The position numbers were made by a program, and so were the translations under genes. A stretch of 64,000 bases of DNA, taken from NCBI RefSeq assembly GCF_055900595.2, contig NZ_CM148325.1; one strand, 5' to 3'. Positions 4,589 to 57,067 of this stretch are shown here, piece by piece. The notes beneath the pieces are model-generated. The model saw only the letters and a program-made list of their open reading frames with translations, had not been told where the DNA came from and did not search any database. Position 1 is the first letter of the stretch; each line of letters opens with the position of its first letter.

Positions 4589-5848
<1,260 letters not shown>

Positions 5849-9314: not shown

Positions 9315-10502
<1,188 letters not shown>

Positions 10503-10507
10503 TCAGC

Positions 10508-10540
10508 TAAACCCCGGCCATGTGCCGGGGTTTCTCTTTA
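10508..10540. terminator. Bidirectional terminator-like hairpin between convergent obgE and dacB
   Basis: aaaccccggcc-atgt-gccggggttt palindrome flanked by A-run and T-run. Confidence 0.5.
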
Positions 10541-10542
10541 GA

Positions 10543-11976
10543 CTAATTATTCTGATAAATATCTTTATACAAACGGCTTTCAAAACGCACTAACGGAATG
10601 CGGCGATTACGCTGATCCGCGGGTTCTACCGCATAGCCAGAAAGATATTGTACAAACGCCATTCGTTGCCCGCTCGCTGTGGTAATGAATCCCGCCAGGT
10701 TATATACCCCCTGCAAAGAGCCGGTTTTTGCTGAGACCTTTCCGTCCACGCCAGCCTGATGCAGGCCCGCACGGTACTGCAAAGAGCCGTCATAGCCTGC
10801 CAGCGGCAGCATAGAGATAAAGTTAAGTTCATTGTCATGTTGGGCAATGTATTGCAGCACCTGCATCATGGTGGCAGGTGCAATCAGGTTATGCCGCGAA
10901 AGCCCTGAACCATCGGCAATAATCGTGTTACCAATATCGATACCAGCTTGCTGACGCAGGATCTGACGTACGGCATCCGATCCGGCCCGCCATGTTCCGG
11001 GCACATTGAAGCGCGCATGGCCTATCATGCGGAAAACCGTATCGGCAATCATGTTGTCTGACTTTTTCAGCATAATCTTAAGCAGATCGTGCAGCGGGGC
11101 CGACTGTTTACTGGCAACTACCGTTCCGGGTTCATTAACCTGAGTCTGGCGCAGTAGTGTTCCGCTCCAGGTGATACCTGCCTGTTTTAACTCATCTTTC
11201 AGAATTGCACCGGCATAGCTGGCTCCATCCTGTATGGCAAAAGCCAACGGGAGCGGCTCAGAACGTTGTGGCAGGCATCCGGTCAGCGTAAAGCGGTTCA
11301 GGTCGCCTGGCACCACATCCAGCTCGCAATATTGCGCTTCGGCAGAACCACGGGGGAGGGTGCGTACCTGGCTGAACATCGTAACAGGGTAATAAGATGC
11401 CACGCGTATAAAGGCCATATCACCGGGTTTTTGGGCACTGTAGAGCGAGACGGAGAAACAGTTGCGGTCAACTATGGCGGCGGCAGGCGGAGCGCTAAAG
11501 CATTGTGTCATGTCATTCCACGGCCAGCCGGGGGCTTTATCGTGGCTGGCAAAAATGGAGGTGTCTATCAACACATTACCATCAATTTGGTTGACGCCAG
11601 ATTTTTTCAAAGTCGTGACCATATTGCGAATATCCTGACGTTTTAACGTCGGATCGGCACCAAATCGCGCCACTAAGTCACCCTTGAGTACGCCGTTTTC
11701 CACATTGCCTTTGGTTTCAAGCGTAGTAGTAAAACGAAAATCGGGGCCGAGTTGAATCAACGCCGCCAGCGCAGTAATCACTTTCTGCGTACTGGCGGGC
11801 AGCGCCATCTGCTGACTGTGGTAATCAATAGCGGGGGCCGATGCGCCGACTTTTTGCACCATCAGGGCAAGGTTGGCACCAGCGGGGAGTTGAGTAATGT
11901 ACTCATCAACATTCGCGGCCTGAACACTGAACGCTATACAGCTGGTCAATCCGATGATAAATCTGGAAAATCGCAT
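10543..11976 (-). CDS. dacB: D-alanyl-D-alanine carboxypeptidase/endopeptidase PBP4
   Basis: 477 aa ORF with signal peptide and STQK active-site motif. Confidence 0.95.
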   Translation of the reverse strand: MRFSRFIIGLTSCIAFSVQAANVDEYITQLPAGANLALMVQKVGASAPAIDYHSQQMALPASTQKVITALAALIQLGPDFRFTTTLETKGNVENGVLKGDLVARFGADPTLKRQDIRNMVTTLKKSGVNQIDGNVLIDTSIFASHDKAPGWPWNDMTQCFSAPPAAAIVDRNCFSVSLYSAQKPGDMAFIRVASYYPVTMFSQVRTLPRGSAEAQYCELDVVPGDLNRFTLTGCLPQRSEPLPLAFAIQDGASYAGAILKDELKQAGITWSGTLLRQTQVNEPGTVVASKQSAPLHDLLKIMLKKSDNMIADTVFRMIGHARFNVPGTWRAGSDAVRQILRQQAGIDIGNTIIADGSGLSRHNLIAPATMMQVLQYIAQHDNELNFISMLPLAGYDGSLQYRAGLHQAGVDGKVSAKTGSLQGVYNLAGFITTASGQRMAFVQYLSGYAVEPADQRNRRIPLVRFESRLYKDIYQNN

Positions 11977-12094
11977 AATCTCGCGCTAACAACCTGGAAT
12001 CGAGCCGTCATACTACGGCGCAACGCCCTATAAAGTAAACGATGACCCTGCGGGAACTTCAGGGTAAAATGACTATCAAAATGTGAATTGCAGC

Positions 12095-12128
12095 TGACCT
12101 GGGACTTGTACCCGGGTCGGTATTTTTT
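12095..12128 (+). promoter_or_regulatory. Terminator-like hairpin plus T-run inside the greA leader (candidate GraL-type attenuator)
   Basis: gacctggg...cccgggtc stem followed by ttttttt, about 100 bp upstream of greA start. Confidence 0.4.
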
Positions 12129-12223
12129 TGCTTCTGGTCCCGGTGAGGAGTTATGCCGGGCAGGCCGAACAGCCGGGGTGGGTGAAGACTTGCCCCATCA
12201 GGAATATTCAAGAGGTATAACAA

Positions 12224-12700
<477 letters not shown>

Positions 12701-12744
12701 GAATTACCCAATACTCAAGATGTTGATGTATTGTAAAGAAAGGA

Positions 12745-12769
12745 AAAAGGCCGCTATGCGGCCTTTTAT
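12745..12769. terminator. Terminator-like hairpin between convergent greA and yhbY
   Basis: aaaaaggccgc-tatg-cggccttttat. Confidence 0.5.
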
Positions 12770-12855
12770 CAACGAACAGAGCGTGGCATTTTGCTCTCCT
12801 GCCTGCGGAAAACCCCTCGTTTTACACAGCAAATGTGTGTAACTTTAGGATAATC

Positions 12856-13149
12856 TTAGCGTGGCAACGAGATTTTACGTTCTTTAGTTGGGCGATAAAG
12901 CACCAGCGTTTTACCGATGACCTGTACATTACAGGCGCCGGTTTCGCGCACGATAGCTTCCACGATCAAGGTTTTAGTTTCGCGATCTTCGGTGGCGATT
13001 TTCACCTTGATGAGTTCATGGTGCTCTAACGCTTGTTCAATCTCGGCCAGCACCCCTTCGGTCAAACCATTACTGCCAAGCAGAACAACTGGCTTGAGCG
13101 GATGTGCCAGACCTTTCAGGTGCTGTTTTTGTTTAGTACTCAGATTCAT
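12856..13149 (-). CDS. yhbY: Ribosome assembly RNA-binding protein YhbY (CRS1/YhbY domain)
   Basis: 97 aa ORF divergent from rlmE. Confidence 0.9.
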   Translation of the reverse strand: MNLSTKQKQHLKGLAHPLKPVVLLGSNGLTEGVLAEIEQALEHHELIKVKIATEDRETKTLIVEAIVRETGACNVQVIGKTLVLYRPTKERKISLPR

Positions 13150-13172
13150 CGTATTTTTTGCTTACGTTGGGA

Positions 13173-13200
13173 TTGAAAACGGGTCATTCTACCGCCATCT
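13173..13200 (+). promoter_or_regulatory. Candidate sigma-32 heat-shock promoter of rlmE-ftsH
   Basis: TTGAAA at 13173-13178 and CCGCCATCT at 13192-13200, resembling the CTTGAAA / CCCCATNT heat-shock consensus. Confidence 0.4.
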
Positions 13201-13274
13201 CCCATATATCACCAAATAGGCGCGTAAAAATTTACGCAATTGGTTACGATGAGTTATCCCCATGGGAAAGTTAA

Positions 13275-13904
13275 ATGACAGGTAAGAAGCGTTCTGCCAG
13301 CTCCAGCCGCTGGCTTCAGGAACACTTTAGCGATAAATATGTTCAACAGGCACAGAAAAAGGGGTTACGTTCCCGTGCCTGGTTTAAACTTGATGAAATA
13401 CAGCAAAGTGACAAACTCTTTAAACCGGGAATGACGGTTGTCGACCTTGGTGCTGCTCCGGGTGGTTGGTCACAATATGTGGTCACCCAAATTGGCGGCA
13501 AAGGCCGCATCATCGCTTGCGATCTTTTACCTATGGATCCTATCGTTGGTGTGGACTTTCTTCAGGGCGATTTTCGTGATGAACTGGTGATGAAAGCACT
13601 GCTGGAGCGCGTTGGCGACAGCAAAGTCCAGGTTGTCATGTCCGATATGGCACCAAACATGAGCGGAACACCGGCGGTGGATATCCCCCGTGCCATGTAT
13701 CTGGTGGAACTGGCGTTAGAAATGTGTCGTGATGTATTAGCGCCAGGTGGCAGTTTTGTAGTGAAGGTGTTCCAGGGCGAAGGTTTCGATGAGTATCTAA
13801 GGGAAATTCGCTCCCTGTTTACGAAGGTCAAAGTTCGTAAGCCGGACTCTTCTCGTGCACGTTCGCGGGAAGTGTATATTGTAGCGACCGGGCGTAAACC
13901 CTAA
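13275..13904 (+). CDS. rlmE: 23S rRNA U2552 2'-O-methyltransferase RlmE (FtsJ/RrmJ)
   Basis: 209 aa ORF with SAM-binding [13 protein letters not shown] motif. Confidence 0.95.
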
Positions 13905-14003
13905 CCGGGAGATTTCAGACGAAAGTTTGAAAGATGCTGGATATAGAGTATCCTGACGCTGTTTTTAACACAGTTGTAATAAGAGGTTAATCCCTTGAGT
14001 GAC

Positions 14004-15938
14004 ATGGCGAAAAACCTAATACTCTGGCTGGTCATTGCCGTTGTGCTGATGTCAGTATTCCAGAGCTTTGGGCCCAGCGAGTCTAATGGCCGTAAGGTGG
14101 ATTACTCTACCTTCCTACAAGAGGTCAATAACGACCAGGTTCGTGAAGCGCGTATCAACGGACGTGAAATCAACGTTACCAAGAAAGATAGTAACCGTTA
14201 TACCACTTACATTCCGGTTCAGGATCCGAAATTACTGGATAACCTGTTGACCAAGAACGTCAAGGTTGTCGGTGAACCGCCTGAAGAACCAAGCCTGCTG
14301 GCTTCTATCTTCATCTCCTGGTTCCCGATGCTGTTGCTGATTGGTGTCTGGATCTTCTTCATGCGTCAAATGCAGGGCGGCGGTGGCAAAGGTGCCATGT
14401 CGTTCGGTAAGAGCAAAGCGCGCATGCTGACGGAAGATCAGATCAAAACGACCTTTGCTGACGTTGCGGGCTGCGACGAAGCAAAAGAAGAAGTTGCTGA
14501 ACTGGTTGAGTATCTGCGCGAGCCGAGCCGCTTCCAGAAACTCGGCGGTAAGATCCCGAAAGGCGTCCTGATGGTCGGTCCTCCGGGTACCGGTAAAACG
14601 CTGCTGGCGAAAGCGATTGCAGGCGAAGCGAAAGTTCCGTTCTTTACTATCTCCGGTTCTGACTTCGTAGAAATGTTCGTCGGTGTGGGTGCATCCCGTG
14701 TTCGTGACATGTTCGAACAGGCGAAGAAAGCGGCTCCGTGCATCATCTTTATCGATGAAATCGACGCCGTAGGCCGCCAGCGTGGCGCAGGTCTGGGCGG
14801 TGGTCACGATGAACGTGAACAGACTCTGAACCAGATGCTGGTTGAGATGGATGGCTTCGAAGGTAACGAAGGTATCATCGTTATCGCTGCGACTAACCGT
14901 CCGGACGTTCTCGACCCGGCGCTGCTGCGTCCTGGCCGTTTCGACCGTCAGGTTGTGGTTGGCTTGCCAGATGTTCGCGGTCGTGAGCAGATTCTGAAAG
15001 TTCACATGCGTCGCGTACCATTGGCACCCGATATCGACGCGGCAATCATTGCCCGTGGTACTCCAGGTTTCTCCGGTGCTGACCTGGCGAACCTGGTGAA
15101 CGAAGCGGCACTGTTCGCTGCTCGTGGCAACAAACGTGTTGTGTCGATGGTTGAGTTCGAGAAAGCGAAAGACAAAATCATGATGGGTGCGGAACGTCGC
15201 TCCATGGTGATGACGGAAGCGCAGAAAGAATCGACTGCTTACCACGAAGCAGGTCACGCGATTATCGGTCGCCTGGTGCCGGAACACGATCCGGTGCACA
15301 AAGTAACGATTATCCCGCGCGGTCGTGCGCTGGGTGTGACCTTCTTCTTGCCTGAGGGCGACGCAATCAGCGCCAGCCGTCAGAAACTGGAAAGCCAGAT
15401 TTCTACGCTGTACGGCGGTCGTCTGGCAGAAGAGATCATCTACGGGCCGGAACATGTTTCTACCGGGGCGTCCAACGATATTAAAGTTGCGACCAACCTG
15501 GCGCGTAACATGGTTACCCAGTGGGGCTTCTCTGAGAAACTCGGTCCGCTGCTGTATGCGGAAGAAGAAGGTGAAGTGTTCCTCGGTCGTAGCGTAGCGA
15601 AAGCGAAACATATGTCCGATGAAACGGCACGTATCATCGACCAGGAAGTGAAAGCACTGATCGAGCGTAACTATAATCGTGCGCGTCAGCTTCTGACCGA
15701 CAATATGGATATTCTGCATGCGATGAAAGATGCTCTCATGAAATATGAGACTATCGACGCACCGCAGATTGATGACCTGATGGCACGTCGCGATGTACGT
15801 CCGCCAGCGGGCTGGGAAGAACCAGGCGCTTCTAACAATTCTGGCGACAATGGTAGTCCAAAGGCTCCGCGTCCGGTTGATGAACCGCGTACGCCGAACC
15901 CGGGTAACACCATGTCAGAGCAGTTAGGCGACAAGTAA
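14004..15938 (+). CDS. ftsH: ATP-dependent zinc metalloprotease FtsH
   Basis: ATG at 14004 gives [15 protein letters not shown]..., 644 aa; Walker A GPPGTGKT and zinc motif HEAGH; ORF-track start 13995 is a TTG extension. Confidence 0.95.
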
Positions 15939-15970
15939 GTTCCCGCATTAGATGACTGTATTTGTACCGA

Positions 15971-16000
15971 AAACCCCGGGGCGTGCTCCGGGGTTTTTTC
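15971..16000 (+). terminator. Intrinsic terminator-like hairpin after ftsH
   Basis: aaaaccccggggcgtgctccggggtttttt. Confidence 0.6.
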
Positions 16001-16027
16001 TTATCAATTCATACCAGGGATAACATC

Positions 16028-16876
16028 ATGAAACTCTTTGCCCAGGGCACTTCACTGGACCTTAGCCATCCTCACGTAATGGGGATCCTCAACGTTACGC
16101 CTGATTCCTTTTCGGATGGCGGCACGCATAACTCGCTGATAGATGCGGTGAAACATGCGAATCTGATGATTAACGCTGGTGCGACGATCATTGACGTTGG
16201 TGGCGAGTCCACGCGCCCAGGGGCGGCGGAAGTTAGCGTTGAAGAAGAGTTGCAACGTGTTATTCCTGTGGTTGAGGCAATTGCTCAACGCTTCGAAGTC
16301 TGGATCTCGGTAGATACTTCCAAACCAGAAGTCATCCGTGAGTCAGCGAAAGTTGGTGCTCACATTATTAACGATATTCGCTCTCTTTCCGAACCTGGCG
16401 CTCTGGAAGCTGCTGCAGAAACCGGTTTGCCAGTTTGCCTGATGCATATGCAGGGAAATCCAAAAACCATGCAGGAAGCCCCGAAGTATGATGATGTCTT
16501 TGCGGAAGTGAATCGCTACTTTATTGAGCAGATAGCTCGTTGTGAGCAGGCGGGTATCGCAAAAGAGAAATTGTTGCTCGACCCCGGATTCGGTTTCGGT
16601 AAAAATCTCTCCCATAACTATTCATTACTGGCGCGCCTGGCTGAATTTCACCATTTCAACCTGCCGCTGTTGGTGGGTATGTCACGAAAATCGATGATTG
16701 GGCAATTGCTGAACGTGGGGCCGTCCGAGCGCCTGAGCGGTAGTTTGGCCTGTGCGGTCATTGCCGCAATGCAAGGTGCGCACATCATTCGTGTTCATGA
16801 CGTCAAAGAAACCGTAGAAGCGATGCGGGTGGTGGAAGCCACTCTGTCTGCAAAGGAAAACAAACGCTATGAGTAA
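16028..16876 (+). CDS. folP: Dihydropteroate synthase
   Basis: ATG at 16028 gives [32 protein letters not shown]..., 282 aa; ORF-track start 15962 runs through the ftsH terminator. Confidence 0.9.
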
Positions 16877-18206
16877 TCGTAAATATTTCGGTACCGATGG
16901 GATTCGTGGTCGTGTAGGGGATGCGCCGATCACCCCTGATTTTGTACTTAAGTTGGGTTGGGCCGCCGGTAAAGTGCTGGCGCGCCACGGCTCGCGTAAG
17001 ATCATTATTGGTAAAGACACGCGTATTTCTGGCTATATGCTGGAGTCAGCACTGGAAGCGGGTCTGGCGGCTGCGGGCCTTTCCGCACTCTTTACAGGCC
17101 CGATGCCTACACCTGCCGTGGCTTATCTGACGCGTACCTTCCGCGCAGAGGCCGGGATTGTAATTTCTGCATCGCATAACCCATTCTACGATAACGGCAT
17201 TAAATTCTTTTCTATTGACGGTACTAAGCTGCCGGATGCAGTTGAAGAAGCCATCGAAGCGGAAATGGAAAAAGAGATCAGCTGTGTTGATTCGGCAGAA
17301 CTGGGTAAAGCCAGCCGTATCGTTGATGCTGCGGGTCGCTATATCGAGTTTTGCAAAGCCACGTTCCCGAACGAACTTAGCCTCAGTGAACTGAAGATTG
17401 TGGTGGATTGCGCAAATGGCGCGACTTATCACATCGCGCCGAACGTACTGCGTGAACTGGGGGCGAACGTTATCGCTATCGGTTGTGAGCCGAACGGCGT
17501 AAACATCAATGCCGAAGTGGGGGCAACTGATGTTCGTGCGTTACAGGCGCGCGTACTGGCTGAAAAAGCAGATCTTGGTATCGCCTTTGACGGTGACGGC
17601 GACCGCGTGATTATGGTTGACCATGAAGGCAATAAAGTCGATGGCGACCAGATTATGTATATCATCGCGCGCGAAGGTCTGCGTCAGGGCCAACTGCGTG
17701 GTGGCGCGGTGGGTACATTGATGAGCAACATGGGGCTGGAACTCGCCCTGAAACAGCTAGGAATTCCGTTTGCTCGTGCGAAAGTGGGCGATCGCTACGT
17801 ACTGGAAAAAATGCAGGAGAAAGGCTGGCGTATCGGTGCAGAGAACTCTGGTCATGTGATCCTGCTGGATAAAACCACAACCGGTGACGGCATCGTTGCT
17901 GGTTTGCAGGTACTGGCGGCGATGGCGCGTAACCATATGAGCCTGCACGACCTTTGCAGTGGTATGAAAATGTTCCCGCAGATTCTGGTTAACGTGCGTT
18001 ACACCGCAGGTAGTGGCGATCCGCTGGAGCATGAATCAGTCAAAGCTGTAACCGCAGAAGTTGAAGCGGCGCTGGGTAGCCGTGGACGTGTGCTGTTGCG
18101 TAAATCCGGCACCGAACCGTTAATTCGCGTGATGGTGGAAGGCGAAGACGAAGCGCAGGTGACTGAATTTGCACACCGCATCGCCGATGCAGTAAAAGCC
18201 GTTTAA
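16869..18206 (+). CDS. glmM: Phosphoglucosamine mutase
   Basis: 445 aa ORF with active-site SASHNP motif; overlaps folP stop by 8 bp. Confidence 0.95.
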
Positions 18207-18225
18207 CGCGTTATATAACTGGCTA

Positions 18226-18252
18226 AAAAGGCGGCGATTGTCGCCTTTTTTC
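18226..18252 (+). terminator. Terminator-like hairpin after glmM
   Basis: aaaaaggcggcgattgtcgcctttttt. Confidence 0.5.
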
Positions 18253-18433
18253 TCAGCGAACACATCGGTTTTGCTGTTTTTTTCCGCAGTTGATACAATG
18301 CGATAAAATTGCCCTTGCGAAGGTCATTCGCTTTGGTTAGTATTCACACCCGCTTCAGTGGGAAAGATTAGAAACTCCCGCTTTATTGGTTGAAGCATTG
18401 GTACGCGGCAACTCCGCAAGGAACAGGTTGATT

Positions 18434-18766
18434 ATGTACGAAGCTCTTTTAGTAGTTTTCCTTATTGTGGCAATTGGCCTTGTTGGTCTGATCATGCTGC
18501 AGCAAGGTAAAGGCGCTGATATGGGAGCCTCCTTCGGAGCAGGCGCTTCCGCTACGCTGTTTGGTTCAAGTGGTTCTGGTAACTTCATGACCCGCATGAC
18601 GGCGCTGCTGGCAACGTTATTCTTCATCATCAGTCTGGTGCTGGGTAACATCAATAGCAACAAAACCAATAAAGGTAGCGAATGGGAAAATCTGAGTGCA
18701 CCGGCGAAAACCGAACAAACTCAGCCAGCTGCTCCGGCTAAGCCGACCAGCGATATCCCGAACTAA
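18434..18766 (+). CDS. secG: Protein translocase subunit SecG
   Basis: ATG at 18434 gives MYEALLVVFLIVAIGLVGLIMLQQGKGADMG..., 110 aa. Confidence 0.9.
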   Translation: MYEALLVVFLIVAIGLVGLIMLQQGKGADMGASFGAGASATLFGSSGSGNFMTRMTALLATLFFIISLVLGNINSNKTNKGSEWENLSAPAKTEQTQPAAPAKPTSDIPN

Positions 18767-18780
18767 AAAGTAGTATCCGT

Positions 18781-18867
18781 GCCGAGGTGGTGGAATTGGT
18801 AGACACGCTACCTTGAGGTGGTAGTGCCCAATAGGGCTTACGGGTTCAAGTCCCGTCCTCGGTACCA
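18781..18867 (+). tRNA. leuU: tRNA-Leu (anticodon GAG)
   Basis: GCCGAGGTGGTGGAATTGGTAGACACGCTACCTTGAGGTGG...GGTACCA; cloverleaf with long variable arm; directly downstream of secG. Confidence 0.95.
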
Positions 18868-18876
18868 AATTCCAGA

Positions 18877-18906
18877 AAAGAGACGCTGAAAAGCGTCTTT
18901 TTTTGT
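18877..18906 (+). terminator. Intrinsic terminator after leuU
   Basis: agacgct-gaaa-agcgtct stem followed by a T-run. Confidence 0.6.
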
Positions 18907-19140
18907 TTTATATCCCCGCATTTTATTGGCTGGATAACGAGCCCCCTCAACTCCTCTCTCTTTGCCTCCTGACTCCGCATAAATCCTTCAAAATAAGATC
19001 TGAATCACTTTTGTTTGGTAGAGCATATAAGCTAAGTGTAAACATTTTTTCAAAATGATATAGATCAGGACTTCAGTTTTTCTAATGTATAAAATCGCAC
19101 GCCGTCGATATTTACTCTGTTCTTATCTACGGGTTTGGGG

Positions 19141-20736
19141 ATGGCTGCACATAACGTATTTCGAAAAATTAAAAATAACTGGCTTATAATTTTTTGTGTA
19201 ATTATTTTTTCTCTGATTAATATCATTGCTTCTTCAGGATCACATCTGGTTCATCGAACACTTTTCTTTGTGCTTTTTATCCTTGTTATAAAACGCACAG
19301 CGTCTTTCCCTTTACGTTTATTATTTGGTATCCCAGTTATGCTGTTGGCTGCTGCGGATCTCTGCATCAGCCTCTATGCATGGTGTACCTTCGGCACCAG
19401 TTTCAATGATGGCTTTGCGATAAGCGTTTTACAAAGTGATCCAGATGAGATTACAAAGATGCTGGGGCTTTATATTGTTTATTGCATTATTTTCCTTGCC
19501 CTGTTCGCACTCTTTTTATCCTCGGTAATAAAATATGATGTTTCGCTACCGGGAAAAAAAATCACAGTGACGTTGTTGCTGATTCTGATTGCGATAAGCT
19601 TATTTTCTTCAGTCAAGTTTGCCCTTAAAGATAAAAAAACAAAGAAAACGGTAGATCCTTATATTGTGGCATCCCGATTCGCAACATATACACCATTTTT
19701 CAACTTAAATTATTTCGCTTTAGCCGCAAAGGAATACCACAGGCTGATGGCCATTGCTGACAAAGTGCCAGGCTATCAATTAGAACTAAGCGATAATGGC
19801 ATCGATGATTATGTATTAATTGTAGGGGAGTCAGTAAGGGCCTCGAATATGTCCATCTATGGGCATAACAGATCGACAACGCCACAGCTCGAAAAACAGA
19901 AGGAGCGTATTAAGCTTTTTACTCAGGCGATAAGCGGAGCGCCTTATACTGCGTTAGCCGTTCCTCTTACTTTAACTGTGGATACTGTATTTGATCACGA
20001 TATCCAGCATTACCCTGACAACATCATTAATATGGCTAATCAGGCTGGGTTTGACACATACTGGCTTAGTGCTCAAGCTGCATTCAGACAGAACGGGACT
20101 GCTGTTGCCAGTATTGCGATGCGAGCGAAAGAAAGAGTCTATGTCAGAGGATATGACGAATTGTTGCTTCCGCATCTGGCTGAGGCATTAAATAAAAAAT
20201 CGCCAAATAAGAAACTGATTGTTCTCCATCTGGTTGGCAGTCATGAACCTGTTTGCGCCACATATCCAGAAGCCAAAGCTGTGTATTATCCATTGGATAA
20301 TCAGGATGCCTGTTATGACAACTCAATTCATTACACCGATAGCATTTTAGGGCAGGTCTTTGCGCTGCTTAAAAATAAGCGAGCCTCGGTTATGTATTTT
20401 GCTGACCATGGGCTTGAACGCGATCCAACGGCAAAACATAGCTATTTCCACGGTGGGAAGAAACCTAGTCAGGAAGCTTATCATGTACCGATGTTTATCT
20501 GGTACAGCCCAATGCTCGGTGAGAACGTTGATCGTTCGACAGTAACTGATATTTTTTCCACTGCTTATAACGACTATCTTATCAATGCGTGGATGGGAGT
20601 TACCCGACCAGAACAACCTAAAACACTTAAAGACGTGATCTCTCACTATCAGGGGGAATCGCGGGTTATTGACGGAAGCCATGAAATGTTTGATTACCGG
20701 GAACTAAGACGAAATTTTAATGCGGACAAGCAGTAA
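19141..20736 (+). CDS. yhbX: Putative phosphoethanolamine transferase-like inner membrane sulfatase-family protein YhbX
   Basis: About 531 aa ORF with hydrophobic N-terminal half and sulfatase/EptA-like C-terminal half; position between leuU and argG matches yhbX; start uncertain (ATG 19141 or TTG 19135); visibly AT-rich. Confidence 0.8.
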   Translation: MAAHNVFRKIKNNWLIIFCVIIFSLINIIASSGSHLVHRTLFFVLFILVIKRTASFPLRLLFGIPVMLLAAADLCISLYAWCTFGTSFNDGFAISVLQSDPDEITKMLGLYIVYCIIFLALFALFLSSVIKYDVSLPGKKITVTLLLILIAISLFSSVKFALKDKKTKKTVDPYIVASRFATYTPFFNLNYFALAAKEYHRLMAIADKVPGYQLELSDNGIDDYVLIVGESVRASNMSIYGHNRSTTPQLEKQKERIKLFTQAISGAPYTALAVPLTLTVDTVFDHDIQHYPDNIINMANQAGFDTYWLSAQAAFRQNGTAVASIAMRAKERVYVRGYDELLLPHLAEALNKKSPNKKLIVLHLVGSHEPVCATYPEAKAVYYPLDNQDACYDNSIHYTDSILGQVFALLKNKRASVMYFADHGLERDPTAKHSYFHGGKKPSQEAYHVPMFIWYSPMLGENVDRSTVTDIFSTAYNDYLINAWMGVTRPEQPKTLKDVISHYQGESRVIDGSHEMFDYRELRRNFNADKQ

Positions 20737-20741
20737 CTGAA

Positions 20742-20767
20742 TGACCCTGCCCATAAAAGGGCAGGGA
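20742..20767. terminator. Terminator-like hairpin between convergent yhbX and argG
   Basis: ccctgccc-ataaaa-gggcaggg. Confidence 0.5.
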
Positions 20768-20779
20768 AAAATTGAGGTT

Positions 20780-22138
<1,359 letters not shown>

Positions 22139-22173
22139 TTAATTAACTGATGATGAGCCTGGATTTCCGCTCT

Positions 22174-22213
22174 CACTGAATTTTTATGCAAAATAAATGA
22201 GTTTTAATTTAAT
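22174..22213 (-). promoter_or_regulatory. Candidate tandem ArgR (ARG box) operators upstream of argG
   Basis: cacTGAATttttATgCAaa and following AT-rich TGAAT/ATTCA-like motif, 50-90 bp upstream of argG start. Confidence 0.4.
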
Positions 22214-22348
22214 CATCTTTTATCGATGACAGGAAGAGTTTAGTGTGTTTTTTGTAAAATAATGCGCTTAAGGAGGAGCAGTAGAGGGCAAAAGTATTCG
22301 ACAAACGAAAGTGAACTGGATATTCATTCACGCGATTAGCAATAAATG

Positions 22349-22378
22349 TTGACAAAATGTGGCGTGGATCACTATAAT
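22349..22378 (+). promoter_or_regulatory. Near-consensus sigma-70 promoter upstream of metY
   Basis: TTGACA at 22349-22354, 18 bp spacer, TATAAT at 22373-22378; about 95 bp upstream of tRNA. Confidence 0.5.
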
Positions 22379-22470
22379 GACTGCAGATTTTACGTCCCGT
22401 CTCGGTACACCAAATCCCAGCAGTATTTGCATTTTTTACCCAAAACGAGTAGAATTTGCCACGTTTCAGG

Positions 22471-22547
<77 letters not shown>

Positions 22548-22669
22548 CTTTCCCTTAGAGTCCTTTTTCAAATATACTGTGAAGACTTCGGCCTTCGTAG
22601 TGGGATTTGAAAAAATCCTTCTGGAAAGTGCTCCAGACCGCAGTTGCGGTTATAGGGTTCAGTTATATA

Positions 22670-22694
22670 AAGCCCCGATTTATCGGGGTTTTTT
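22670..22694 (+). terminator. Terminator/attenuator-like hairpin between metY and rimP
   Basis: aaagccccgatt-tatcggggtttttt. Confidence 0.5.
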
Positions 22695-22753
22695 GTTATC
22701 TGACTACAGAATAACTGGGCTTTAGGCCCTTTTTTTATGTCTTGGGGGTGGGC

Positions 22754-23206
22754 TTGTCCACATTAGAGCAAAAATTAACAGAGATGATTACTGCGCCAGT
22801 TGAGGCCCTGGGTTTTGAACTGGTTGGCATCGAGTTTATTCGCGGTCGCACATCCACACTGCGCATCTATATTGATAGTGAAGATGGCATCAATGTTGAT
22901 GATTGTGCTGATGTGAGCCACCAGGTAAGTGCTGTGCTGGATGTCGAAGATCCCATCACCGTTGCTTATAACCTGGAAGTCTCCTCACCGGGTCTCGATC
23001 GCCCACTGTTCACGGCTGAACACTACGCCCGTTTCGTCGGAGAAGAGGTGACTCTGGTTCTCCGTATGGCGGTACAAAACCGTCGTAAATGGCAGGGCGT
23101 TATCAAAGCGGTAGACGGTGAAATGATCACAGTTACCGTCGAAGGTAAAGATGAAGTGTTCGCGCTGAGTAATATCCAGAAGGCGAACCTGGTTCCCCAC
23201 TTTTAA
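22754..23206 (+). CDS. rimP: Ribosome maturation factor RimP
   Basis: 150 aa from TTG at 22754 ([15 protein letters not shown]...); start codon choice uncertain (GTG 22748 also possible). Confidence 0.8.
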
Positions 23207-23233
23207 TAGTCTGGATGAGGTGAAAAGCCCGCG

Positions 23234-24721
<1,488 letters not shown>

Positions 24722-47511: not shown

Positions 47512-48375
47512 ATGAAACAACACCAATCGGCGGATAATTCTCAGGGCCAGCTTTACATTGTACCGACGCCAATCGGCAATCTGGCAGATATCACCCAGCG
47601 TGCGTTGGAGGTTTTACAGGCCGTTGATCTGATTGCCGCCGAGGATACGCGTCATACCGGTTTACTGCTGCAACATTTTGGAATTAACGCCAGGTTGTTC
47701 GCCTTGCACGACCATAACGAACAACAGAAAGCCGAAACGTTACTGGCGAAGCTGCAGGAAGGGCAAAACATTGCGCTGGTGTCCGATGCCGGAACGCCAC
47801 TGATTAACGATCCCGGCTATCATCTGGTGCGTACCTGCCGAGAAGCGGGGATTCGCGTGGTGCCACTACCGGGGCCGTGTGCTGCTATCACTGCATTAAG
47901 TGCTGCGGGTTTACCATCCGATCGTTTTTGTTATGAAGGTTTCCTGCCTGCCAAATCAAAAGGCCGTCGTGATGCGCTAAAAGCCATTGAAGCGGAGCCG
48001 CGTACGCTGATTTTTTATGAATCCACCCACCGTCTGTTAGATAGCCTGGAAGATATCGTTGCTGTGCTGGGTGAGTCCCGTTACGTGGTGCTGGCGCGTG
48101 AGCTCACCAAAACCTGGGAAACCATTCACGGCGCGCCCGTTGGCGAGCTGCTGGCGTGGGTCAAAGAAGATGAAAACCGTCGCAAAGGTGAAATGGTGCT
48201 GATTGTTGAAGGCCATAAAGCACAGGAAGAAGACTTACCTGCCGATGCCCTGCGCACGCTGGCGTTGTTACAGGCTGAGCTTCCGCTGAAGAAAGCGGCG
48301 GCGCTGGCAGCAGAGATTCACGGCGTGAAAAAAAACGCGCTGTATAAGTATGCGCTGGAACAGCAGGGGGAGTGA
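47512..48375 (+). CDS. rsmI: 16S rRNA C1402 2'-O-methyltransferase RsmI
   Basis: 287 aa ORF divergent from lpoA. Confidence 0.9.
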
Positions 48376-48379
48376 TTAC

Positions 48380-48412
48380 AGGCGTCGCAGCAAGAATAGA
48401 GCTGCAACGCCT
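48380..48412. terminator. Palindrome between convergent rsmI and agaI (candidate bidirectional terminator)
   Basis: ggcgtcgcagc-aagaataga-gctgcaacgcc imperfect inverted repeat filling the 49-bp gap. Confidence 0.4.
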
Positions 48413-48424
48413 ACACCGGGCGAT

Positions 48425-49192
48425 TTAACGACGACACATCTCATCAATCATGCATGTGAAATAGTTATGCAGCCATAAAAACGAAGCCGGGATAGCGGTA
48501 GAGACTTTAGCCGTGAGAAAACGTTCTGTCGCATCCTGCTTTCCTTCGCCAGTTATCAGTAACAAAACTTCGCGGGCATTGAGAATATCCTTCAGGCCTA
48601 AAGTGATCCCACGAGTCACGGGGCGACCCGCGGTTTTTAACATCTCATGTTGTTGCGTTCTGGTATCAAGCTGGCTGATATGGCTTGCTGGTTGCAGACT
48701 TTCTCCCGGTTCGTTCAGCCCAAGATGGCCGTTTTTTCCCAATCCGAGAACGCATAAATCCAGACCGCCTTTGCGCGCAATCAGGTTCGTTACCCGTTCG
48801 CACTCTGTCTCATTTATCTCTTCAGAGCGAAAGCTGATGAGCTGGTCTTCACGTAGCCCCAGCGGCTGCACGATATGCTGTTGAAGGAAAGTTTCGCAGG
48901 TGCCAGGCATCGTTAATGGCAGATCCACCCATTCGTCGAGCTTCACGAAGGTCAGTTGGCTGACATCAACCTGCTGCTGGTGGATTTTTTCTACCAGATA
49001 ATGATACGTCAGTAATGGCGTGGCTCCGGTCGCCAGGCAAATCACGGCATCCGGTTTGCTACGGATCACGGCCAATAAATATTCGCTGGCACGTTCACTT
49101 AACGCCGTATAGTTTTCAACTTGTTGAAGGGTTTGCACAGGATGAAATTCCTTTAGTAAAGAGGCACCACCAGACGCAGTGCCTCGTTCCAT
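48425..49192 (-). CDS. agaI: Galactosamine-6-phosphate deaminase/isomerase AgaI (NagB family)
   Basis: 255 aa ORF; last gene of the agaS-kbaY-agaBCDI block; ATG directly follows agaD stop. Confidence 0.85.
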   Translation of the reverse strand: MERGTASGGASLLKEFHPVQTLQQVENYTALSERASEYLLAVIRSKPDAVICLATGATPLLTYHYLVEKIHQQQVDVSQLTFVKLDEWVDLPLTMPGTCETFLQQHIVQPLGLREDQLISFRSEEINETECERVTNLIARKGGLDLCVLGLGKNGHLGLNEPGESLQPASHISQLDTRTQQHEMLKTAGRPVTRGITLGLKDILNAREVLLLITGEGKQDATERFLTAKVSTAIPASFLWLHNYFTCMIDEMCRR

Positions 49193-53837: not shown

Positions 53838-54971
53838 TCAAAACGAAGCTAATTGACCCTGAATCCAGATTTGTTGCACATACAGTCCGCTATTCAGCGC
53901 AACGACGCTGGCGCGTTTGCCCGGTTTAAGTGATCCCAGAACACCATCAACACCCAGCATTCGCGCCGGATGCAGCGATGCCATATGGATGGCTTCCGCA
54001 GGCGTTACGCCCGTCAACTCGACCATGTTGCGCACTGCCGCATCGACAGACAGCGTACTGCCCGCCAGCCCACCGGACGCGGTACGGACAACGCCACCGC
54101 GCATCTGCACTTCTTCACCACATAACGTATATTGACCATCCGGCATCCCGGCTGCCTGCATCGCATCAGTTATCAGCACTATTCTCTCTTTCGCACAGCA
54201 ACAACACAGCGACATCGCCGCCGGATGTACATGATGCCCATCGGCTATCAATTCCAGCCAGGCGCGCTTGTCCGTTAAACCCGCGCCAACCATTCCCGGT
54301 TCGCGGTGATGTAATCCTGTCATCCCGTTATAGCAATGCACCAGGCCGTCTGCGCCAGCATCAAATACGGCGCGGGTTTGTTGCCAGGTTGCTGCGCTAT
54401 GTCCCAGCATTACCCGCACGTTCTGCTGTTTAAGATGACGAATGGCTTGTAACGCGCCCGTTTTTTCCGGTGCCAGCGCCACCACGCGCAAGGTATGCCG
54501 TGAAACAGCAATCAATTGATCCAGCTCGGCAATTTCCAGCTCGCGAAACAGCTCCGGCGGATGTGCGCCTTTATTCTGCGGCGTGAAGTACGGTCCTTCG
54601 AGATAACTCCCCAGCACTTGCGCACCAGGTCCACCGCGCTGGCAGCGTAGAGCAATACGTTCCAGCGCCGCATGAATGGTATTAAGCGGCGCGGTTACGG
54701 TAGTCGGCAACCAACTGCCGACACCTTCCCGTGCCTTGTGCATTGCCAGCTTGTCGAGCACATCCGGCGCGTCATCCATAACATCAACGCCCGCACCACC
54801 GTGTACATGGGTATCGATATAAGCGGGGCAGAGCAGTTCCGCATCGCGTTCAGTCACGCCCACTGGAATCGGTTCGATTGCTGCAATTACACCGTCAGCA
54901 ATATGCAACTGATGATCATCAAGCCAGCCCTCCTCAGTCAGCAGTCTTCTGGCGCGCAGAACGTGTGTCAT
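53838..54971 (-). CDS. agaA: N-acetylgalactosamine-6-phosphate deacetylase AgaA (full length)
   Basis: ATG at 54971 gives MTHVLRARRLLTEEGWLDD..., about 377 aa NagA-like amidohydrolase; uninterrupted. Confidence 0.85.
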   Translation of the reverse strand: MTHVLRARRLLTEEGWLDDHQLHIADGVIAAIEPIPVGVTERDAELLCPAYIDTHVHGGAGVDVMDDAPDVLDKLAMHKAREGVGSWLPTTVTAPLNTIHAALERIALRCQRGGPGAQVLGSYLEGPYFTPQNKGAHPPELFRELEIAELDQLIAVSRHTLRVVALAPEKTGALQAIRHLKQQNVRVMLGHSAATWQQTRAVFDAGADGLVHCYNGMTGLHHREPGMVGAGLTDKRAWLELIADGHHVHPAAMSLCCCCAKERIVLITDAMQAAGMPDGQYTLCGEEVQMRGGVVRTASGGLAGSTLSVDAAVRNMVELTGVTPAEAIHMASLHPARMLGVDGVLGSLKPGKRASVVALNSGLYVQQIWIQGQLASF

Positions 54972-55402
54972 ATTCCTTCCTCGACCGGACATTCTTCATG
55001 GCAGCGGCCTAACTCGTCTACCAGACTGGTCAGCCCACGGTGTCCACACTCCAGCGCCTGCACACGGAATTCTTCACCGCTTAACCCTTCGCGCTCCAGC
55101 ACCATTTCCAGTAACAGTTGCAAATTGGTGCCGGTGATCACTTCATAGCCCGGTTTTTGCATCGCCAGCGTTGAAGCCACGCGAAACGGTGTGCCGCCCA
55201 GCAAATCTGTCAGAAAAACAATGCCGTCTTCACAATCCAGTTGGGCGATGGCTTCTTCAAGCTGCGATGTAAGCAGCGCAGTGCTTGAGGTTTCCGGAAA
55301 ATCAATGGCGATAAACTGCGACTGCTCGCCGAGGATTTGCTTCATTGCTTTTTCCATGCCGCTGGCAAATCCGCCATGCCCTGTCAAAATAATACTTAAC
55401 AT
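54968..55402 (-). CDS. agaF: PTS N-acetylgalactosamine/galactosamine EIIA component AgaF
   Basis: 144 aa mannose-family EIIA. Confidence 0.85.
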   Translation of the reverse strand: MLSIILTGHGGFASGMEKAMKQILGEQSQFIAIDFPETSSTALLTSQLEEAIAQLDCEDGIVFLTDLLGGTPFRVASTLAMQKPGYEVITGTNLQLLLEMVLEREGLSGEEFRVQALECGHRGLTSLVDELGRCHEECPVEEGI

Positions 55403-55419
55403 CTAATACCTCATTGTAT

Positions 55420-56298
55420 TTAAAGGAAATGACAGAATTTACCGACGATGCCAAGAACCACGGTAACCGCAATCAGGCGCAGCGGACTCCAGCCGCGGCG
55501 TACCAGCCAGAACATGGTCAGGGTGTAGACCAGCGGTAAGAAGGCAGGCATCAGTTTGTCGATAACGTCAGCCTGCAGCTTAACCACTGCGTCGCCCGCC
55601 GTGATTTCCAGCGTGGTGCTTAAACGAACATAGGTTGCCACCAGCGCGCCGATTACCGTCATCCCAACGATTGACGCAGCATGGCCGACTTTTTTGGTAT
55701 TCGCTTTAATGAGTGGAATCGCCGCCACGCCCATGCGGTAAGCATAATGCGCCAGACCAAAACGCAGCCCCAGGTGTACCACGTTGAACAGCACAATAAA
55801 GACGACTGCGCCAAGAATAGAGCCTTGCAATGCCAGACTGGCTCCAATCCCGCCACAAATCGGCAGTAACGTTAGCCAGAACATGGCATCGCCAATCCCG
55901 CCGAGCGGCGCACCGACGGCAATTTTGGTGCTCTGAATACTGTTAACGTCCTGCTTAGAACGCTCCATCGCAAGGATAATGCCGATAACAAACGTCACCA
56001 GAAACGGATGGGTATTGAAGAAACCCATATGTCCCTTCATGGCGCGCGCCAGGTCGCGTTTATTAGTGTGGATCTTTTTCAGAGCAGGCAGCAGACCGTA
56101 CAACCAGCCGGAAGCCTGCATACGTTCGTAGTTAAAAGACGCTTGTAACAGCATGGAACGCCAGGCGACGCGGTTGATATCTTTTTTCGTCAGCTCTGCG
56201 CCAATGCTCTGATCTTCATACACGTTTTCATTGACGCCTGTCAGCAGTGTCTCTTCATTTTCGCTGACGTTCGGCAGGGTGGTTTGATTAGATGCCAT
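55420..56298 (-). CDS. agaE: PTS N-acetylgalactosamine-specific EIID component AgaE
   Basis: ATG at 56298 gives MASNQTTLPNV..., about 292 aa; 11-bp overlap with agaW like the agaC/agaD junction. Confidence 0.85.
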   Translation of the reverse strand: MASNQTTLPNVSENEETLLTGVNENVYEDQSIGAELTKKDINRVAWRSMLLQASFNYERMQASGWLYGLLPALKKIHTNKRDLARAMKGHMGFFNTHPFLVTFVIGIILAMERSKQDVNSIQSTKIAVGAPLGGIGDAMFWLTLLPICGGIGASLALQGSILGAVVFIVLFNVVHLGLRFGLAHYAYRMGVAAIPLIKANTKKVGHAASIVGMTVIGALVATYVRLSTTLEITAGDAVVKLQADVIDKLMPAFLPLVYTLTMFWLVRRGWSPLRLIAVTVVLGIVGKFCHFL

Positions 56299-57067
56299 CT
56301 TCAAATTCCTCTTTCTGTGCCGCAGGTTGAGTCGGTTCAGGAGATTTACGCAGCAAGTCGATCAGCGCCATCGCCAGCGCGGCGGCAGCAATAGCCAGCA
56401 CCGGTAACTTGAGCCAGGCTGCGGCAACAAAGCCCAGGATGAAGTAGGGGATGTAGACGTTTTTCATCATGATTTTCAGCAGCACGGCAAAACCGATTGC
56501 TGGCATGATGCCACCCGCGACGCCGAGGCCGTCGATTAATCGTTGCGGCAGGACATCAATGATGGTTTTGGCATGTTCTGCGCCGAAGTAGATAGGCAGG
56601 AAAGCGCAGAGAAAATAGAACGTGCCGAGTGCCAACAGTGCCAGATAGTTCACGCGTTCAATGCCGCGTGTATCGGCGTTCTCCGCCATCCGGTCGCAGC
56701 GGGACATTACGCCAGACATCACCGAGAACAGGAAGGTAATCCCCATCTGTACTGCGACAGCGAAAGGTACGGCGACACCGACCGCGACATCCGGTTTCAC
56801 GCCAGTAGTAATGGCAAACGCCGTGCCGACGATAGTTCCGATAATCACGTTAGGCGGCTGTGCGCCCGCCAGTGGTGCCAGCCCCATCCACACCAGTTCC
56901 AGCGTACCGCCGGTTAAAATACCGGTATGCAGATCGCCAAGCACCAACCCAACTAACGGGCCGAGGACCACCGGGCGGTGCATATGGGTCAAGCCGTTAA
57001 ACATATCCAGGCCAGCGATAAAGGCGATAATGCCCAACGCAAATGCCTGCAACAGACTGATTTCCAT
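56288..57067 (-). CDS. agaW: PTS N-acetylgalactosamine-specific EIIC component AgaW (full length)
   Basis: 259 aa mannose-family EIIC, paralogous to AgaC; uninterrupted. Confidence 0.85.
   Translation of the reverse strand: MEISLLQAFALGIIAFIAGLDMFNGLTHMHRPVVLGPLVGLVLGDLHTGILTGGTLELVWMGLAPLAGAQPPNVIIGTIVGTAFAITTGVKPDVAVGVAVPFAVAVQMGITFLFSVMSGVMSRCDRMAENADTRGIERVNYLALLALGTFYFLCAFLPIYFGAEHAKTIIDVLPQRLIDGLGVAGGIMPAIGFAVLLKIMMKNVYIPYFILGFVAAAWLKLPVLAIAAAALAMALIDLLRKSPEPTQPAAQKEEFEDGI

Follow-up and report, generated by a model that had tools for sequence, protein, structure and literature searches.

A deeply diverged yhbX in a probable exchangeable cassette between leuU and argG of Escherichia

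How did an AT-rich gene come to lie between the tRNA gene leuU and argG, and is it the same gene in every Escherichia chromosome? We studied this locus in a stretch of 64,000 nucleotides from contig NZ_CM148325.1 (hereafter the window), which differs from E. coli Z0117EC0005 at 18 of its 64,000 bases. Its genes follow the order folP, glmM, secG, tRNA-Leu(GAG), a 273-bp spacer, an open reading frame (ORF) of 531 codons, convergent argG and tRNA-Met. RefSeq names the product of the ORF at 19141-20736 'phosphoethanolamine transferase' (WP_077757013.1). A preliminary description, made from the nucleotide sequence alone, took this gene for the yhbX of K-12 and read its base composition and its tRNA neighbour as the signature of an old horizontal acquisition, probably silenced by H-NS. 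According to our analysis, positions 18905-20787 are likely to be an exchangeable cassette of ~1.9 kb, carrying a xenologous gene of the YhbX family (type B, the K-12 form being type A) and swapped through its conserved flanks. Such a cassette, composed of its own 5' region and one gene, would fill a polymorphic slot bounded by the leuU terminator on one side and by the 3' end of argG on the other.

The first indication is the distance between the two forms. Type B YhbX and K-12 YhbX (b3173, WP_001333576.1) are 69% identical in amino acids and the genes ~68% in nucleotides, with a proportion of synonymous differences (pS) of 0.76, which is saturated, and a nonsynonymous divergence (dN) of 0.21. 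The flank genes ftsH, folP, glmM, secG, nusA and infB show synonymous divergences (dS) from K-12 of 0.01-0.33 and encode proteins at least 99.6% identical. The divergence matching the flanks that an ortholog of K-12 yhbX should have was thus not found, and the identification of the gene as K-12 yhbX was wrong; the comparison with K-12 proposed in the same description revealed a deep split. Compared with K-12, the nucleotide sequence is 96-100% identical as far as 18909, where the alignment ends ten bases beyond the T-run of the leuU terminator; within the cassette the value drops to ~55-79%, and from the argG stop on it is again 94-99%. The split between types A and B would far predate that of the host lineages.

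Both types have much in common. They share slot and orientation (yhbX downstream of leuU and convergent with argG), an architecture of five helices followed by a sulfatase fold, and a low GC content (0.43 in K-12 and 0.41 in type B). They differ in their unrelated 5' regions (458 bp in K-12, 273 bp in the window), in the C-terminus, where the type B protein is shorter by 10 residues, in the spacer to argG (7 bp in K-12; 43 bp with a hairpin in the window) and in the last two ArgG codons. The shared layout could be explained by a single ancient entry of yhbX followed by fast divergence in place, A and B then being true orthologs. Their 69% identity, slightly above that of either to any other homologue (61-66%), is in line with this idea, as is the hairpin motif GGGCAGGG, which stands beside argG in both types, a related motif being found at the 3' end of K-12 yhbX. 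However, fast protein evolution raises dN and not dS, and cannot saturate synonymous sites; we consequently take A and B for ancient xenologs in the same place. Moreover, identity drops as a step at the breakpoints and not as a gradient, no intermediates of 75-95% identity were found among the protein clusters, and by blastn the type B 5' region resembles neither that of K-12, nor those of the homologues from a metagenome-assembled genome (MAG) and a plasmid described below, nor that of Leminorella.

A direct comparison is provided by genomes with nearly the same flanks. Seven mainstream E. coli genomes match the window left flank (ftsH-leuU) at 99.2-99.5%. One of these seven genomes examined, R32_14_1F, is window-like on both sides (98.4-100% over 9.5-18.9 kb and 98.8-100% over 21.0-24.5 kb) and holds a K-12-type cassette. 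The differences between the flanks of R32_14_1F and the window cease at 18904 and restart at 20783-20787, and the window argG is 99.0-99.6% identical to that of R32_14_1F versus 96-98.6% to that of E. fergusonii. Near-identical flanks around opposite types are difficult to reconcile with divergence in place, and a single ancient entry is strongly disfavoured; we regard it as very unlikely. Homologous recombination through the flanks fits better, because the flanks are nearly identical, the cassettes are opposite and there are neither repeats nor an integrase. From this pattern we infer that the cassettes were probably exchanged by this route. More broadly, the region 9500-24500 of the window points to gene flow among clade I, E. 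fergusonii and E. coli.

The outgroup gives a hint on which type came first. Over the 9.5 kb of the flank identity matrix, E. coli, clade I and E. fergusonii share 96.7-99.2% identity with one another and 94.7-95.3% with Escherichia sp. E14V7. Since E14V7 has a K-12-type upstream region (86% identity), parsimony suggests that the K-12 type is older and the window type a later replacement. Type A thus appears, on this comparison, to be older than type B within the E. coli group.

The slot is not restricted to two forms of yhbX. In a survey of 5,426 complete E. coli genomes, 5,167 carry K-12-type yhbX at 97.5% identity or more (5,179 with any match), 8 carry window-type yhbX at 99.9-100% identity, and 237 have an unrelated helix-turn-helix (HTH) gene encoding a 317-residue protein (WP_001012978.1). 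The latter gene has a GC content of 0.38 and lies on the strand opposite to yhbX (L028 2978-4146 and L014 12840-14040, cassette coordinates); its product, with an N-terminal HTH, has matches in Pfam, PHROGs and PADLOC at the level of the HTH domain only. In strain FWSEC0008 (O91:H21) the HTH gene sits in the leuU-argG slot between flanks 99.8% and 98.8% identical to K-12, and its cassette has breakpoints identical to those of the yhbX cassettes, the left one at the equivalent K-12 position L001:4042. E. marmotae also has the HTH gene in the slot. Its sequence aligns collinearly with that of FWSEC0008, with an identity of 92.7% overall and of ~91% within the cassette, an indication that the HTH cassette is as old as the species split. 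In E. albertii the slot is empty, ~180 bp without a gene separating leuU from argG. The leuU terminator hairpin is present alike in K-12, E. albertii, E. marmotae and FWSEC0008 and is the last sequence common to all cassette types. On the opposite side, the C-terminal dipeptide of ArgG varies with the neighbouring cassette: GQ with the K-12 type (R32_14_1F included), AK with the window type (E. fergusonii included), VK or GR with the HTH type and TK with the empty slot. This places a recombination junction inside the last codons of argG. Types A and B and the unrelated HTH cassette probably alternate at this one site, by homologous recombination in the conserved flanks.

The compositional oddity noted in the preliminary description is real. 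GC content is 0.34-0.44 over 18900-20750 versus 0.50-0.57 in the flanks (sliding window), and among the 64 genes of the window type B yhbX has the lowest GC (0.412; mean 0.522, standard deviation 0.029, z=-3.85), the lowest GC at third codon positions (0.391 versus 0.550, z=-2.82) and the lowest codon adaptation index (CAI; 0.346 versus 0.532, z=-1.73, with the translation genes of the window itself as reference set). The 273-bp region 5' of the gene has a GC content of 0.381. The AT-rich run quoted there does exist, but at 19189-19229, within the part of the ORF that encodes the first transmembrane helix, and not upstream.

Does this composition, next to a tRNA gene, betray a decayed island? 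Along the lines of the description, a tRNA-targeted island at leuU would have lost its integrase and attachment (att) sites, yhbX being the sole surviving cargo. Islands with P4 integrases share with our locus the tRNA neighbour and the atypical composition, and the variable presence typical of tRNA islands is found here too, with three cassette types and an empty state across Escherichia. In an Enterobacteriaceae MAG (L008 9899-13204), an intact P4-like integrase at tRNA-Phe even has a 66%-identical homologue as its immediate neighbour and first cargo. However, the window differs from such islands by the lack of integrase and att repeats. Between leuU and argG there is no integrase gene, the ORFs other than yhbX being short and overlapping (60-111 residues), and no convincing direct repeat of the tRNA 3' end (attL/attR) was found at the far junction, the best candidate being 14 nt at 86% within the coding sequence (19519-19532). 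An Rfam scan matched the tRNA alone. The earlier statement that this is not an intact island therefore stands. In addition, the left breakpoint lies 3' of the tRNA terminator, so the tRNA itself was not the target; the right one lies in the last codons of argG, where it co-varies with cassette type; and both are also used by the unrelated HTH cassette. For these reasons, we consider a decayed island unlikely. As the breakpoints lie past the terminator and in the last codons of argG, homologous exchange fits better than tRNA-targeted integration, and the tRNA adjacency is probably incidental. Of the acquisition proposed earlier, the atypical composition and the horizontal origin are supported.

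The horizontal origin itself now has arguments beyond composition, namely the alternative cassettes, the empty slot of E. albertii and the presence of homologues in mobile contexts. Besides the MAG, a 62-kb E. coli plasmid, pRHB40-C01_2 (CP057032.1), carries a copy 94% identical in amino acids to the MAG homologue (L021 438-2099). In Leminorella grimontii a 64-65% homologue lies beside dndB/C/D-like genes (L009 4704-11593, read by eye) and close to other island-type genes; dnd genes are responsible for DNA phosphorothioation. All five YhbX lineages compared are 61-69% apart and, to different extents, AT-rich, with GC contents of 0.41-0.48. Genes named yhbX have also been listed together with intA/intS in an island analysis (PMC12054123). 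Phage records contain family-level relatives only, at most 32% identical, and four of the five high-identity 'plasmid' matches in PLSDB are chromosome-sized or very large (354 kb) records. A scan of GTDB representatives with the YhbX alignment returned two loci only (Leminorella and the MAG) and missed the E. coli and E. fergusonii representatives, and was not used for distribution.

Which bacteria carry type B? The same 8 genomes are the only ones at least 99% identical to the window lineage at two unlinked control loci, all other E. coli reaching at most 95.5% and 96.6%. Two alternatives, a wrongly labelled E. fergusonii and an E. coli carrying a large introgression, were rejected for the window, as both control loci show it to be divergent (at most 96.6% identical to other E. 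coli). Among the 8, the GEMS isolates listed in a genome announcement (100117, E200086, E400634, E500002 and E600003) have been classified there as 'Cryptic' or 'Cryptic I' of sequence type (ST) 485 (PMC13064198), and the 8 carriers of type B belong to cryptic clade I ST485. Proteins exact to the lineage occur on ~190-400 contigs each (19 for one protein), and the 24 lineage contigs examined have a single haplotype. R32_14_1F, for its part, has a clade-I-like haplotype over ~15 kb, though its identity to clade I does not exceed 96.6% at the control loci.

Type B extends to genomes labelled E. fergusonii. Several E. fergusonii-labelled proteins, 98-99% identical in amino acids, fall in the same 90% protein cluster, and three E. 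fergusonii-labelled assemblies match the window at ~99% along 17.6-21.6 kb, identity being lower (96-97%) in patches within argG and the glmM-secG spacer. At a control locus, clade I, K-12 and E. fergusonii are roughly equidistant (96.7-97.8%). Type B is the form of cryptic clade I ST485 and of E. fergusonii-labelled assemblies. One of the latter (L019 8001-11629) has yafL followed by argA/amiC/mltA-like genes, named by Pfam domain content only; in this stretch rayT and a lateral-flagellar remnant are replaced, and the order is rearranged relative to E. coli and clade I.

Further information was obtained from the protein. The preliminary description had recognised a phosphoethanolamine (PEtN) transferase similar to EptA/OpgE, with a polytopic N-terminus and a sulfatase domain, and domain and structure searches agree. 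Pfam Sulfatase (PF00884) covers residues 223-474 (E 1e-51, 176.5 bits, cut-off 25), and the top-scoring relatives of known structure are E. coli EptC (5zzu, E 6.9e-24) and full-length NmEptA (5fgn, E 3.6e-21); residues 48-489 of 5fgn align with residues 36-459 of type B YhbX, both domains being homologous. The catalytic domain of MCR-1 is also among the PDB matches. A Kyte-Doolittle scan gives five hydrophobic segments within residues 10-164 (approximately 14-33, 40-52, 57-80, 108-130 and 141-160), as in the five-helix N-terminal membrane domain of NmEptA. Residues E240, T280, H383, D452, H453 and H465 of NmEptA correspond to E230, T270, H368, D422, H423 and H437 of type B, none missing, and H448 is conserved too; the threonine nucleophile and the zinc ligands, whose inspection had been advised, are therefore intact. 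These catalytic residues are invariant between type B and K-12 YhbX.

Type B YhbX is thus homologous over both domains to the characterised PEtN transferases (EptA/PmrC, EptB, EptC/CptA, OpgE, Neisseria EptA and MCR-1) and shares their Glu/Thr/Asp-His zinc site and extra histidines, but differs from them in falling below every NCBIfam equivalog cut-off. None of the models EptA, EptB, CptA/EptC and MCR-1 to MCR-13 was reached, the best score being 150.8 bits against a cut-off of 404 (CptA subfamily), followed by EptA (107/561), EptB (106/493) and the MCR models (at most 68, with cut-offs of at least 1075). K-12 YhbX likewise remains far below all of them. Pfam EptA_B_N gave no match at E<=0.001, and PADLOC no defence-system match. 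By analogy with EptA and MCR-1, five transmembrane helices would anchor a periplasmic zinc-dependent domain, in which Thr270 would accept PEtN from phosphatidylethanolamine and then hand it to an envelope acceptor. Most likely, the product is a functional inner-membrane enzyme. Naming it a lipid A or colistin-resistance enzyme would be unfounded, and on present evidence type B yhbX is not a resistance determinant.

The silencing suggested earlier has to be considered here. Type B yhbX and its upstream region, with a GC content of 0.38-0.41 versus 0.516 for the window, are consistent with the composition of H-NS targets. A search for H-NS motifs returned one match with 1 mismatch to TCGATAAATT at 19161, while matches over the whole window were barely above those in shuffled sequences, and the searchable literature contains no chromatin immunoprecipitation data on yhbX. 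One could then think of a functionless relic repressed by H-NS. The very low GC and CAI would agree, as would the promoter scan, which found no sigma-70-like site 5' of type B above shuffle expectation, and the fate of K-12-type yhbX in other E. coli, where it is sometimes interrupted by an insertion sequence, 4.4% of genomes having no yhbX in the slot. However, the 531-codon ORF is intact in ~400 assemblies with one conserved haplotype, all catalytic residues are kept, and dN between types is far below the saturated dS; the gene consequently looks functional. Within a yhbX type, dN/dS is 0.16-0.72, below 1, on few substitutions. Besides, K-12 argG-yhbX has been reported as one of the convergent pairs whose transcripts overlap (PMC12288877), and this implies some transcription. 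Thus, we find a silenced relic highly improbable, the least probable of the explanations considered.

Several observations weigh against an exchangeable cassette with a xenologous type B gene as we propose it. The three cassette counts add up to 5,412-5,424 of the 5,426 genomes, and their mutual exclusivity was inferred from these totals, not genome by genome. The polarity of type A rests on 265 nt of E14V7 together with the 9.5-kb flank matrix. Most of the 21.6-kb region, and not the cassette alone, is ~99% identical between clade I and E. fergusonii, and so gives no direction of transfer. Among 5.8 billion protein clusters none is 70-98% identical to type B, and therefore its ultimate donor is unsampled. 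Finally, the YhbX subfamily has no member with a demonstrated substrate (PMC4013655).

With these points in mind, we still see type B yhbX as ordinary in kind, a horizontally derived envelope-enzyme gene and not a new type of system. The twist is that the allele is both rare and xenologous, and that three alternative cassettes, each with precise junctions, are found at its slot. Polymorphic cassette regions between conserved genes are known in enterobacteria, such as mutS-rpoS and the O-antigen cluster between galF and gnd. As in those regions, unrelated or deeply diverged gene sets alternate at one site and are shared across species, mobility genes are missing, and the junctions within the conserved flanks are sharp; the leuU-argG slot differs in being much smaller, with one gene of ~1-2 kb and three cassette types seen. 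We found no description of the slot itself in the searchable literature. It could be speculated that the slot is a long-lived cross-species polymorphism of envelope enzymes and an HTH gene under balancing or frequency-dependent selection, which we consider quite unlikely. If this were so, decoration by YhbX of a surface glycan seen by phages or host immunity would be a plausible driver, types A and B would have split according to acceptor specificity, and the cassette type of a strain would go along with its surface chemistry, such as the lipopolysaccharide core or O-antigen type.

Few PEtN-transferase paralogs of E. coli still lack a known substrate, and YhbX is one of them. Two forms 69% identical, together with strains lacking the gene, in matched contexts, provide a comparative panel to search for the acceptor by mass spectrometry, and the two types could show which residues set specificity. 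For annotation, genes in the leuU-argG slot should not all be equated with K-12 yhbX. The slot is also of use to population genomics, as a compact case of xenologous replacement via conserved flanks and as evidence that E. coli, cryptic clade I and E. fergusonii exchange genes. The features of the locus are collected in Table 1.

Table 1. Features of the leuU-argG slot, in window coordinates
Feature	Position	Strand	Evidence and remarks
leuU, tRNA-Leu(GAG)	18781-18867	+	ARAGORN; Rfam tRNA 52.8 bits; 100% conserved with K-12; left anchor of the slot
leuU intrinsic terminator, hairpin and T-run	18875-18904	+	Terminator scan; fold -16.4 kcal/mol
Left cassette breakpoint	18905-18910		BLAST end versus K-12 at 18909; last R32_14_1F single-nucleotide difference at 18904
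Cassette-specific 5' non-coding region, GC 0.38	18910-19140	+	blastn, promoter scan
yhbX type B, 531 residues, YhbX-family phosphoethanolamine transferase, WP_077757013.1	19141-20736	+	RefSeq, Pfam, PDB matches
N-terminal membrane domain, five hydrophobic segments	19141-19635	+	Kyte-Doolittle scan; 62% identical to K-12
Predicted periplasmic sulfatase-fold catalytic domain, residues 220-475	19798-20565	+	75% identical to K-12
ACT codon, Thr270, predicted catalytic nucleophile	19948-19950	+	HMMER alignment to NmEptA Thr280 (5fgn)
GC-rich hairpin CCCTGCCC-ATAAAA-GGGCAGGG, between the convergent yhbX and argG stops	20745-20766		Fold -20.4 kcal/mol
Right cassette breakpoint, in the last two argG codons	20779-20788		Single-nucleotide differences from R32_14_1F at 20783-20787, then near-identity
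argG, convergent with yhbX	20780-22123	-	Right anchor of the slot

Other differences from K-12 were observed in the window. In glmM (17000-18100), 100-bp windows are 85-94% identical to K-12 and dS is 0.33 versus 0.07-0.15 in the neighbours, with a protein 99.8% identical, which suggests a mosaic or recombinant tract within the gene. At 10505-10509 the window lacks ~149 bp found in the cgtA-dacB intergenic region of K-12, maybe a REP-type (repetitive extragenic palindromic) element. The yraHIJK fimbrial operon, which in K-12 occupies 5.5 kb between agaI and rsmI, is absent and replaced by ~98 bp at 48370-48467. The aga cluster at 54397-56691 is complete (agaW, agaE, agaF, agaA/nagA), while K-12 has a 2.3-kb deletion there.

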